DNA of 8,328 nt from a plasmid: assembly GCF_056712565.1 (NCBI RefSeq), contig NZ_JBWXXM010000005.1, one strand, 5' to 3'. Below, piece by piece: positions 2,358-8,328 of this stretch. A program made the position numbers and the translations under genes. A model generated the notes under the pieces. That model searched no databases. It worked only from the letters and a program-made list of their open reading frames with translations, and was not told the origin of the DNA. Numbering within the stretch: position 1 is the stretch's first letter; each line of letters starts with the position of its first letter.

Positions 2358-2478
2358 GGGATTATTCCTGACTCATTGACCATCAAATCACATTGGGAGT
2401 AAACCGACGTATGATAAGAGATACTCTTCGGAGATATAACTCCCTGAGTATCAAGATTAAAAACGCAAGGAGATGTTT

Positions 2479-2901
2479 ATGAGATCTGCCGCTGCCAGGC
2501 TGCTTCTGATACCTCTGATAACAGCAACAATAGCTCTTACAGGATGCACACCAAAGACCAGCCTGGAACGACATACCCGGCATTATGTTTATGCTTCAGA
2601 TGATGGATTTGATCCTAACTTCTACACCCAGAAAGCAGACACCATACGTATGATGCTCCCGTTCTTTCAGCAGTTCCGGGATATGGGGATGAAAGACAAA
2701 GCAGCCGGAGTATCAGCAGAAACGGCACAGCAACGTGTAAAAGAATTCCACTCAGAAAAATTTTTTCACTCACTCCGGAGCACAACAGCCTTTGCTGGCA
2801 GAAAATACACAAACAGCGATATGCCTTCGCCGAAAAAAATGAAACTAATGGCAGACACCATTTCTGCGGTTTATCTCGATGGATACGAGGGCAGACAGTA
2901 A
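2479..2901 (+). CDS. Lipoprotein (140 aa), possible entry-exclusion-type protein of ColE1-like plasmids
   Basis: ORF track 2473..2901; I prefer ATG 2479 because the SD AAGGA (2467..2471) is 7 nt upstream. N-terminus MRSAAARLLLIPLITATIALTGC is a signal peptide ending in the lipobox L-T-G-C. The position between colicin promoter and mob genes is where ColE1 carries exc genes as I remember it; homology was not verified. Confidence 0.65.
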   Translation: MRSAAARLLLIPLITATIALTGCTPKTSLERHTRHYVYASDDGFDPNFYTQKADTIRMMLPFFQQFRDMGMKDKAAGVSAETAQQRVKEFHSEKFFHSLRSTTAFAGRKYTNSDMPSPKKMKLMADTISAVYLDGYEGRQ

Positions 2902-3274
2902 GGGATTTACCATAATCCCTTAATTGTACGCACCGCTGAAATGCGTTCAGCGCGATCACGGCTGCTGACAGGTAAAAATGGCAACAAACCACCCGAAAAG
3001 CTGCCGCGATCGCACCTGATAAATTTTAACCGTATGCATAGCTATTCAGCCATGTGAATAACGCTGGTTTTGCCTGCGTAAACCTCATGACACTGTTTTT
3101 TTTCCATCTTTTCAGTTGATGACATACGCAGACATCGCGGGATGAGGCTGAGGAATGAGCGCGATCTGGCAAAGAGGCAAAACACAGCAACAAAAACGAC
3201 ACGCCAGAATCGCGCCCGGATGCGTTTTTAACGCGTTCCGGTACCATCTGGCAACCTCCCGGAACAACTCACCG

Positions 3275-6288: not shown

Positions 6289-6392
6289 ACAGCATTTGGT
6301 ATCTGTGCTCCACTAAAGCCAGTTACCCGGTTAAGCAGTCCCCAACTGACTTAACCTTCGACTAAACCGCCTCCCCAGGCGGTTTTTTCGTT
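6289..6392 (+). ncRNA. RNAI antisense copy-number control RNA
   Basis: Starts at ACAGCATTTGGTATCTG (pMB1 RNAI starts ACAGTATTTGGTATCTG) and ends at the hairpin plus T-run ...ccgcctccccaggcggttttttcgtt. Its promoter has -35 TTGAAG (6254..6259) and -10 TACACT (6276..6281) as in pMB1. Loop sequences differ from pMB1. Confidence 0.8.
6364..6392 (+). terminator. RNAI intrinsic terminator
   Basis: Stem aaaccgcct / aggcggttt with loop cccc, followed by a T-run (ttttttcgtt). Confidence 0.7.
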
Positions 6393-6459: not shown

Positions 6460-6500
6460 TGGATTTGCCCCTATATTTCCAGACACCTGTTATCACTTAA
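6460..6500. repeat. IS2 terminal inverted repeat (IRR)
   Basis: Imperfect inverted repeat partner of 7749..7790; shared core CCAGACA...ATATCACTTA. Confidence 0.8.
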
Positions 6501-7376
6501 CCCATTACTGGCTTGCTGCCGTAGATATTCCCGTGGCGAGCGATAACCCAGTGCACTATGCGGATGCCATTCGTTATAATGCTCGAACGCCTCTGCAAGG
6601 TTCTTTGCTGCCGTTAACCCGTCTGGTTTGGGCATGACACTGATGTAGTCACGCTTTATCGTTTTCACGAAGCTCTCTGCTATGCCGTTACTCTCCGGAC
6701 TCCGCACCGCCGTGCTCTTCGGTTCAAGCCCCAACATCCGGGCAAACTGCCGTGTTTCATTAGCCCGGTAGCATGAACCATTATCCGTCAGCCACTCTAC
6801 TGGAGACGCCGGAAGCTCGTTGCCGAAGCGGCGTTCCACCGCTCCCAGCATGACGTCCTGTACTGTTTCACTGTTGAAGCCGCCCGTAGTGACCGCCCAG
6901 TGCAGTGCCTCACGGTCACAGCAGTCCAGCGCGAACGTGACTCGCAGTTTTTCTCCGTTATCACAGCGGAACTCGAACCCGTCAGAGCACCATCGCTGAT
7001 TACTTTCTTTCACAGCCACTCTGCCTGTATGTGCCCGTTTCGATGGCGGTACAGCAGGTTTTCGCTCAAGCAACAGCGCATTCTGGCGCATGATCCGGTA
7101 AACACGTTTGGCATTGATCGCAGGCATACCATCAAGTTCTGCCTGTCTGCGAAGCAGCGCCCATACCCGACGATAACCATACGTGGGCAGCTCTCCGATA
7201 ACATGGTGTATACGGAGAAGCACATCCGTATCATCAGTGTGACGACTGCGGCGGCCATCCATCCAGTCATCGGTTCGTCTGAGAATGACGTGCAACTGCG
7301 CACGCGACACCCGGAGACAACGGCTGACTAAGCTTACTCCCCATCCCCGGGCAATAAGGGCGCGTGCGCTATCCAC
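6471..7376 (-). CDS. insD: IS2 transposase OrfB (InsD), normally expressed as an OrfAB fusion by -1 frameshifting
   Basis: ORF track 6471..7376 (-) 301 aa, (M/V)[33 protein letters not shown]...[12 protein letters not shown]... with a DDE-type integrase core (...[37 protein letters not shown]...). The first codon is GTG and overlaps the end of insC. Confidence 0.95.
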
Positions 7377-7699
7377 TTTTTTGCCCGTCCATATTCAACG
7401 GCTTCTTTGAGGAGTTCATTTTCCATCGTTTTCTTGCCGAGCAGGCGCTGGAGTTCTTTAATCTGCTTCATGGCGGCAGCAAGTTCAGAGGCAGGAACAA
7501 CCTGTTCTCCGGCGGCGACAGCAGTAAGACTTCCTTCCTGGTATTGCTTACGCCAGAGAAATAACTGGCTGGCTGCTACACCATGTTGCCGGGCAACGAG
7601 GGAGACCGTCATCCCTGGTTCAAAGCTCTGCTGAACAATTGCGATCTTTTCCTGTGTGGTACGCCGTCTGCGTTTCTCCGGTCCTAAGACATCAATCAT
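7334..7699 (-). CDS. insC: IS2 OrfA (InsC), helix-turn-helix regulator / N-terminal part of the transposase
   Basis: From ATG at 7699: [58 protein letters not shown]...[26 protein letters not shown]. The 15 extra N-terminal codons in the track ORF 7334..7744 are rejected. Confidence 0.93.
7377..7383 (-). other. IS2 programmed -1 ribosomal frameshift heptamer (A AAA AAG) at the insC/insD overlap
   Basis: Minus-strand sequence ggcA AAA AAG tgg is in the OrfA zero frame. A -1 slip reads AAA AAA GTG GAT AGC = KKVDS..., continuing into InsD. This is a known IS3-family mechanism. Confidence 0.7.
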
Positions 7700-7748
7700 C
7701 TGCTCTCCAATGACTAGTCTAAAAACTAGTATTAAGACTATCACTTAA

Positions 7749-7947: not shown

Positions 7948-8238
7948 ATGCATTTAAAATACTACCTACATAATTTACCTGAATCACTTATACCATGGAT
8001 TCTTATTTTAATATTTAACGACAATGATAACACTCCTTTGTTATTTATATTTATATCATCAATACATGTATTGCTATATCCATACTCTAAATTAACCATA
8101 TCTAGATATATCAAAGAAAATACAAAGTTAAAAAAAGAACCCTGGTACTTATGCAAGTTATCTGCATTGTTTTATTTATTAATGGCAATCCCAGTAGGAT
8201 TGCCAAGTTTCATATATTACACTCTAAAGAGAAATTAA
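7948..8238 (+). CDS. cki: Pore-forming colicin immunity protein (96 aa, integral inner-membrane protein)
   Basis: ORF track 7948..8238 (+). Very AT-rich and hydrophobic (…[33 protein letters not shown]…[26 protein letters not shown]), consistent with several membrane spans. It is convergent with the colicin gene and sits between colicin and lysis genes on the opposite strand, the canonical arrangement for pore-former immunity genes. Its stop (8236..8238) overlaps the colicin stop (8235..8237). Confidence 0.8.
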
Positions 8239-8328
8239 ATCCCTAACAACTCATTAAGTTTGCTCAACTCATCATCCCCTATGTAAGAAGAAACAATACC
8301 TGTGACAATTGCAATCCCCCAGAAACCA
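8235..8328 (-). CDS. cka: C-terminal tail of the colicin gene (last 29 codons plus stop), continuing from the window start across the circular junction
   Basis: Reverse complement of 8235..8327 translates [30 protein letters not shown]-stop, the end of the hydrophobic hairpin and C-terminus of a pore-forming colicin. The stop TAA is the reverse complement of 8235..8237. Window 8325..8328 (acca) equals window 1..4 (acca), and joining 8324 to 1 gives a continuous ...[15 protein letters not shown]... reading frame. Confidence 0.75.

Follow-up and report, generated by a model that had tools for sequence, protein, structure and literature searches.

The perfect 9-bp palindrome at 2899..2922 of the window, the 8,328-nucleotide stretch of plasmid DNA analysed here (NZ_JBWXXM010000005.1), is very probably part of the multimer-resolution site of pColK-K235, a cer-type site of which it is the XerD half, and not an element in its own right, as judged from sequence. 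The minus strand from 2934 to 2905 reads GGTGCGTACAA-TTAAGGGA-TTATGGTAAAT, which is identical at 30 of 30 positions to the ColE1 cer core as published (table in PMC2410131) and as found in ColE1 itself (NC_001371). The ColE1 cer core is made up of a XerC arm, an 8-bp central region and a XerD arm (PMC2410131, citing Lesterlin 2004). More generally, plasmid Xer cores have an 11-bp XerC arm, a central region of 6-8 bp and an 11-bp XerD arm (PMC2699498, PMC11724359), and this layout was found at 2934..2905 on the minus strand. The whole window is 99.4% identical to pColK-K235 (NC_006881.1), with the 80 bp around the core being identical, which makes the site the cer homologue of ColK. We take this homologue to be the site named ckr in the early literature, and the ColK ckr site is said to have featured in the early crossover-mapping work of Summers et al. 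1985.

The orientation of the site is also that of cer. An invariant orientation has been described in which rcd and RNAII are transcribed the same way and the ArgR side is met first (PMC2831885). RNAI was located at 6291-6391 on the plus strand, which places RNAII on the minus strand, and the window follows the rule in that its cer site reads ArgR, XerC, XerD on the minus strand, like RNAII. Sequence identity and the cer literature together indicate that this is a cer-type XerCD/ArgR/PepA dimer-resolution site, and its dependence on these proteins would be that of cer. The feature is the already described ColK cer/ckr site; it is ordinary, and nothing about it challenges current understanding. 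The cer-type site is missing from the RefSeq and PLSDB gene tables and from Rfam. The result matters chiefly as correct annotation, since what seemed to be a terminator-less hairpin is the crossover core of Xer/cer, a textbook plasmid-stability system that includes the Rcd checkpoint. The features of the region are listed in Table 1.

Table 1. Features of the cer-type site and its surroundings, in window coordinates.
Feature	Position	Strand	Basis or remarks
exc2, Exc2 family entry-exclusion lipoprotein	2473..2901	+	NCBIfam NF033828, E=4.5e-53
Palindrome	2899..2922	.	exc2 stop, spacer, XerD arm and 7/8 central-region bases
Palindrome part: exc2 stop TAA	2899-2901		
Palindrome part: spacer GGG	2902-2904		
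Palindrome part: whole XerD arm	2905-2915		middle six bases form the loop
Palindrome part: 7/8 central-region bases	2916-2922		
cer-type Xer core recombination site, 30 bp	2905..2934	-	identity to ColE1 cer core
XerD-binding arm TTATGGTAAAT, 11 bp	2905..2915	-	published core; arm-conservation rules (PMC5935869, PMC11724359)
Central (crossover) region TTAAGGGA, 8 bp	2916..2923	-	published ColE1 cer core
XerC-binding arm GGTGCGTACAA, 11 bp	2924..2934	-	published ColE1 cer core
Accessory sequences, ~180 bp, XerC side	2935..3115	-	ColE1 cer alignment; outer limit approximate
ARG box-like ArgR site CTGAATAGCTATGCATAC	3032..3049	-	~98 bp upstream of XerC arm; sequence-based
Pcer promoter, inferred	3023..3049	-	-35 CTGAAT 3049-3044, 15-bp spacer, -10 TAAAAT 3028-3023; promoter scan
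Rcd RNA, predicted, ~70 nt	2947..3016	-	covariation, folding, conserved 15-mer; coordinates inferred

Structure and composition of the palindrome

The left arm of the palindrome (2899-2907, TAAGGGATT) and its right arm (2914-2922, AATCCCTTA) are 100% complementary and enclose a 6-nt loop, TACCAT, as seen on reading the sequence and with a repeat finder. This bears out the original prediction of a perfect 9-bp stem-loop whose left arm begins with the stop codon TAA (2899-2901) of the lipoprotein ORF at 2473..2901 on the plus strand. The same prediction was correct in holding that the structure is not a classic intrinsic terminator: the stem is followed by no T-run on the plus or the minus strand, and the site is absent from the list returned by a terminator scan. 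Its likeness to a Rho-independent terminator lies in the position of a stem-loop right at a gene end. In contrast to such a terminator, it has only three G-C pairs in an A/T-rich stem, and the reading was dropped for want of a U-tract.

The lipoprotein gene is exc2, and plasmids with 100% identity have it annotated as Exc2 too. The gene runs toward the core from the XerD side, and 3 bp separate its stop codon from the XerD arm. Upstream of exc2 there are two ORFs, at 1770-2087 on the plus strand (105 aa) and at 2079-2357 on the minus strand (92 aa); neither had an NCBIfam match, and the 92-aa product has a signal-peptide-like N-terminus. ColE1 carries exc1 at the corresponding position.

Eighteen of the 24 palindrome bases are dictated by the Xer site, with the XerD arm supplying the loop and five stem bases, and the other six are the spacer and the stop codon. 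On the minus strand these six read CCCTTA, which complements TAAGGG of the central region, most likely by chance, and the ends of the XerD arm (TT/AA) together with an adjacent A/T give three more stem pairs. The inverted repeat exists because the six outer-flank bases complement the central region in the allele that lacks an extra T. The hairpin is most likely a by-product without a separate function, a minor role at the 3' end of the exc2 mRNA being improbable. The suggestion that the palindrome is a protein-binding site was right in substance, inasmuch as it covers the XerD arm and the crossover region, but the palindrome itself is not what XerD recognises. In the cer literature the arm is recognised by XerD as duplex DNA (PMC2699498, PMC5357621, PMC11724359).

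Perfect 9-bp inverted repeats with loops of 3-8 nt are expected 0.23 times per dinucleotide-shuffled window, and at least one occurs in 18% of shuffles; the window has four. The 9-bp palindrome alone is weak statistically and not remarkable. Folded as plus-strand RNA, the stem extends to ~13 pairs beginning 4 nt before the exc2 stop codon (-13.9 kcal/mol, z = -4.4), compared to -11.0 kcal/mol (z = -2.6) for the minus-strand RNA and -6.7 kcal/mol (z = -3.6) for single-stranded DNA. A search of Rfam gave no family match over the palindrome, and only RNAI reached the gathering score in the window.

Three further features of the plasmid were observed outside this region. The gene for colicin K, cka (1-1556 and 8235-8328, minus strand), is broken when set against pColK-K235 as the reference: over 1,650 nt there are five gap positions and two mismatches, the frame changes from 0 to 2 after approximately codon 352 with a stop at 480-482, and frame 0 is regained near the C-terminus. 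The break is either a pair of compensating frameshifts, which would make cka a pseudogene, or the result of sequencing errors in the deposit. Just upstream of the cka start (1556, minus strand), positions 1599-1633 hold a 17-bp near-perfect inverted repeat, TACTGTACATATAACCA/TGGTTTTATGTACAGTA, presumably resembling the overlapping LexA (SOS) boxes typical of colicin promoters. A copy of IS2 with InsC/InsD-like ORFs occupies 6471-7744, between the replication region and the lysis gene, and otherwise identical 6,988-bp ColK plasmids are without it.

Conservation of the pairing and of the DNA flanking the core

Cer-like cores were gathered from one genome per species with a pattern that fixes just the two arms. 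This gave 111 sites with 91 distinct cores with flanks, and the pairing test was performed on 85 distinct 27-mers. The six pairs between the central region and the outer flank (G-T allowed) were complementary in 38.8% of cases, compared to 39.0% when flanks were reassigned among the sites, with 55% of shuffles reaching or exceeding the observed value, and to 38-45% in slid registers. One site paired at 6/6 positions and three at 5/6, against binomial expectations of 0.3 and 2.7, respectively. The distribution matches the binomial expectation, the pairing is at chance, and no selection on it was seen among the 85 distinct cer-like sites. The DNA immediately beyond the XerD arm differs almost everywhere among these sites; the same TTAAGGGA central region is found with six flanks, namely CCCTTACT (the window and L049), CCACTTAC (ColE1 type), AGGGCGGT, ATATGAGC, CACCCTTC and ACAATTGG.

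ColE1 has GTGG in place of GGG (CCACTTA on the minus strand), which introduces a 1-nt bulge into the stem. In PLSDB, the perfect form was found in 74 plasmids and the bulged form in 193, and nearly all of these lie under an exc2 annotation. These alleles were counted using 33-34-nt queries centred on the indel, each of which matches its own allele only; 65-nt queries were dropped, as partial matches to the core alone confounded the counts. Further exc2-linked records held only the two known alleles, GGG and GTGG, and with two alleles the exc2-linked lineage is too uniform for a covariation test. Among relatives with conserved flanks, the ColE1-type plasmids have lost the perfect 9-bp form through the 1-nt insertion, although a weaker, bulged hairpin remains: the plus-strand RNA of the ColE1 allele still folds at -10.1 kcal/mol (z = -3.2), the bulge costing ~3.8 kcal/mol. 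The idea that the palindrome serves as an RNA stability element finds no support in these data: cer-like sites do not keep the pairing, ColE1 and 193 PLSDB plasmids have a bulge in it, and the palindrome lies outside Rcd.

Conservation around the core is one-sided. The 150 bp upstream of the XerC arm are 60-89% identical to the window in many loci, and the 80 bp downstream of the XerD arm are ~50% identical, which is background, unless exc2 is present. Several sites are hybrids. Two (L026 and L091) have a window-type accessory region and XerC arm and then switch at the central region (TGCGACG), in another (L053) homology switches right after the XerD arm, and two more (L056 and L107) have a core and exc2 flank of the ColE1 type next to an accessory region that diverges. 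These hybrids provide direct sequence evidence for module exchange at the Xer core, which looks like a natural crossover point. Their switch positions agree with the exchange of strands by XerC at the junction of arm and central region, which yields a Holliday junction (PMC2699498), and would lend indirect support to Xer-dependent dimer resolution. In natural sequences, then, homology between ColE1-family plasmids breaks exactly at the Xer core, which fits earlier reports of varied segments beside multimer-resolution sites. Because homology breaks there, the DNA beyond the XerD arm, and hence the palindrome, is not conserved.

Rcd, the resolution mechanism and alternative roles of the hairpin

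Alignment of the window with the cer site of ColE1 (NC_001371) spans the core plus ~180 bp on its XerC side, and this accessory region is kept in ~50 cer-like sites while the XerD side is not. The architecture of accessory sequences plus core has been described for the family (PMC2699498, PMC11724359), with the accessory sequences adjoining the XerC arm and the central regions not conserved (PMC11724359), a rule with which the hybrid sites are also in line. Cer-type sites have some 180-200 bp of such sequences and an ArgR box whose position is fixed; the window agrees with this, and the TGCAT..ATGCA columns are nearly invariant across 50 sites. We take CTGAATAGCTATGCATAC to be a likeness of the ARG box consensus. 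The putative Pcer, whose boxes have the ColE1 counterpart TTGCAT-15-TAAAAT, overlaps the ARG box, and the Rcd hairpin begins 7 nt after TAAAAT. A spacer of 15 bp is that of Pcer (PMC5935869), and the direction of Pcer/rcd transcription is taken from PMC2831885.

Rcd is a 70-nt RNA that forms a single stem-loop and is encoded within cer (PMC5357621, PMC5935869). Its homologues in ColE1, CloDF13, ColA and pRK2 share a conserved 15-nt block, which is 86.7% identical between CloDF13 and ColE1 (PMC5935869). The window has a long hairpin of 68 nt at 3016..2949 on the minus strand (-37.4 kcal/mol, z = -5.4), inside which lies the conserved 15-mer GGGTGGTTTGTTGCC (2994..2980, minus strand). The ungapped CloDF13/ColE1 15-mers that match at 13/15 positions (86.7%), GGGTGGTTTGTTGCC among them, are all upstream of the core, compared to a best match of 10/15 downstream of it. 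RNAalifold on the full 286-column alignment returned three trivial pairs only, and a trimmed alignment of 25 sites was used instead. In the trimmed alignment 16 of 21 hairpin pairs are compensatory, both partners having changed, and the paired fraction of cells is 90%, compared to 34-55% with the partner slid; none of 500 shuffles reached the observed value. These 15-mers and the covarying hairpin suggest that Rcd lies at approximately 3016-2947 on the minus strand and that the palindrome, which begins 27 nt beyond the hairpin and past the XerC arm, is outside it. The window is thus predicted to hold a Pcer with a 15-bp spacer and an Rcd of ~70 nt with a single hairpin and the 15-nt block. A small hairpin beside the XerC arm (2951..2935) was paired at 73%, compared to 71% in shuffles, in an alignment confounded there by indels.

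Despite very strong covariation across ColE1-family plasmids, the Rcd-type hairpin has no family in Rfam 15. Over the Rcd stem, a search of 2780-3120 at E<=1 returned only a chance match to a miRNA precursor hairpin (E = 0.48). The hairpin is a straightforward candidate for a new RNA family. A second promoter-like match with a 15-bp spacing, TGAACG-15-TACAAT (2949-2923, minus strand), scored equal to the one at the ARG box in a simple scan. This match overlaps the XerC arm, and transcription from it would cross the core antisense to exc2, inside which there is a terminator-like hairpin (2867..2851, minus strand).

The mechanism has been established for cer (PMC5357621, PMC2831885, PMC2699498, PMC11724359) and would carry over to the ColK site by virtue of sequence identity. 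Host ArgR and PepA would bind the ~180 bp of accessory sequences (2935 to ~3115) and interwrap the two sites that a plasmid dimer carries as direct repeats. XerC and XerD would bind their 11-bp arms (2934-2924 and 2915-2905, respectively) as duplex DNA, and XerC would swap one pair of strands at the junction of arm and central region. The resulting Holliday junction would be resolved by the cell, converting dimers to monomers. Meanwhile, Pcer in the accessory region would make the ~70-nt Rcd hairpin RNA, which would delay the division of dimer-containing cells.

Roles for the hairpin itself must be weighed against this reading. On the plus strand it could act at the end of the exc2 mRNA, either as a 3' stabiliser against exonucleases or as a weak, U-less pause or termination signal that limits transcription into cer. 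The extended plus-strand stem and its z-score favour such a role, as do the persisting fold of the ColE1 allele and the position of both alleles directly at the exc2 stop in 267 PLSDB plasmids. However, most of the stem and loop is fixed by Xer function whatever the RNA does, the majority allele is the bulged one, the U-tract is absent, no compensatory changes are seen between the two exc2-linked alleles, and other cer-like sites have unrelated flanks with chance-level complementarity. Moreover, 27 nt further downstream the same strand holds a much stronger structure, complementary to the Rcd hairpin, which would be the likelier 3' structure for a read-through exc2 mRNA. We therefore regard a role at the exc2 mRNA end as improbable. 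A narrower version, for which we see very little likelihood, holds that the six bases separating the exc2 coding end from the XerD arm were recruited, in the lineage of cer/ckr sites linked to exc2, to pair with the central region. If it were so, the exc2 mRNA would end or pause at a hairpin built partly from a recombination site, and the GGG/GTGG indel (74 compared to 193 plasmids, ~3.8 kcal/mol) would tune Exc2 expression or read-through into cer. As such read-through would be antisense to Rcd, entry exclusion would be coupled to the dimer checkpoint.

On the minus strand, the palindrome could be the 5' stem-loop of Rcd, or of a read-through or second transcript from TGAACG-15-TACAAT, and would then stabilise an RNA antisense to the exc2 3' end. 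In keeping with this, that promoter match scores as well as the one at the ARG box, an RNA starting ~7 nt after TACAAT would have GGGAUU...AAUCCC at its 5' end, the terminator-like hairpin at 2867..2851 lies ~70 nt downstream, and in relatives of pMB1 transcription from a promoter within cer passes through the core and enters ecoRIR (PMC7315355). Yet cer-like plasmids show no conservation downstream of the XerD arm, even though Rcd homologues share a conserved 15-nt block; the 13/15 matches and the covariation-supported 68-nt single hairpin are upstream of the core; the literature places rcd "within" cer (PMC5357621); and TACAAT is limited to the ColE1-type XerC arm, being absent from most cer-like sites. 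An Rcd of 70 nt with TACAAT as the Pcer -10, the palindrome as its 5' hairpin and an end at 2867..2851 was rejected because of the unconserved XerD flank, the covarying hairpin upstream and the restriction of the 86.7% 15-mers to the upstream side, and a 5' stem-loop of any of these transcripts is highly unlikely. It is also conceivable that the repeat extrudes as a DNA cruciform under negative supercoiling, modulating XerD binding or the handling of the Holliday junction at the core. The perfect 9-bp inverted repeat is centred on the XerD arm and folds as single-stranded DNA with a z-score of -3.6, but 9-bp arms with a 6-nt loop are short for cruciform extrusion, and extrusion would destroy the duplex XerD site. 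Furthermore, ColE1, with the fully functional reference cer, has a bulge in the repeat, and the repeat is missing from other functional cer-like sites, leaving the cruciform a close to negligible prospect.

Comparison with known Xer sites

Chromosomal dif is acted on by the same recombinases as the ColK site and has the same layout of arm, central region and arm. Its XerD arm is one base off (TTATGTTAAAT compared to TTATGGTAAAT; PMC2410131), and, in contrast to the ColK site, its central region is 6 bp long, it lacks accessory sequences and it depends on FtsK (PMC11724359).

The cer-like site of CloDF13, mwr of pJHCMW1 and psi of pSC101 share the architecture of the ColK site, with accessory sequences on the XerC side, and CloDF13 also has an Rcd-type hairpin and the 15-mer. 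Their XerC arm and central region differ (GGTACCGATAA-GGGATG in CloDF13). Beyond the XerD arm, these sites continue into unrelated DNA, with no equivalent palindrome except by chance. CloDF13 (L116, minus strand) has a second perfect match to the XerD arm (…TGCGACG-TTATGGTAAAT) 390 bp from its cer-like site, the two matches being at offsets 5174 and 5564 on the minus strand; no recognisable XerC arm or cer-like accessory region accompanies the second.

Exact ColE1-family cer cores were also found in assemblies labelled Streptomyces, Rhizobium, Bradyrhizobium, Collinsella, Streptococcus, Paceibacterota and others. These off-lineage cores (among loci L002-L110) are mostly on very short contigs and are probably contaminating enterobacterial plasmid or vector DNA.

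A close counterpart is cer of ColE1, which has the identical 30-bp core and a homologous accessory region with an ARG box. It shares the TAAAAT -10 with its 15-bp spacing, the Rcd hairpin and the conserved 15-mer, it has the same orientation relative to RNAII, and in both plasmids the 3' end of exc2 abuts the XerD arm. The two differ by one base between the exc2 stop and the XerD arm (GTGG in ColE1 compared to GGG in the window), leaving the ColE1 palindrome bulged, and by substitutions dispersed over the accessory region, where identity is ~82% across 150 bp. ColK ckr is the same locus as the site described here, with no difference at the site.
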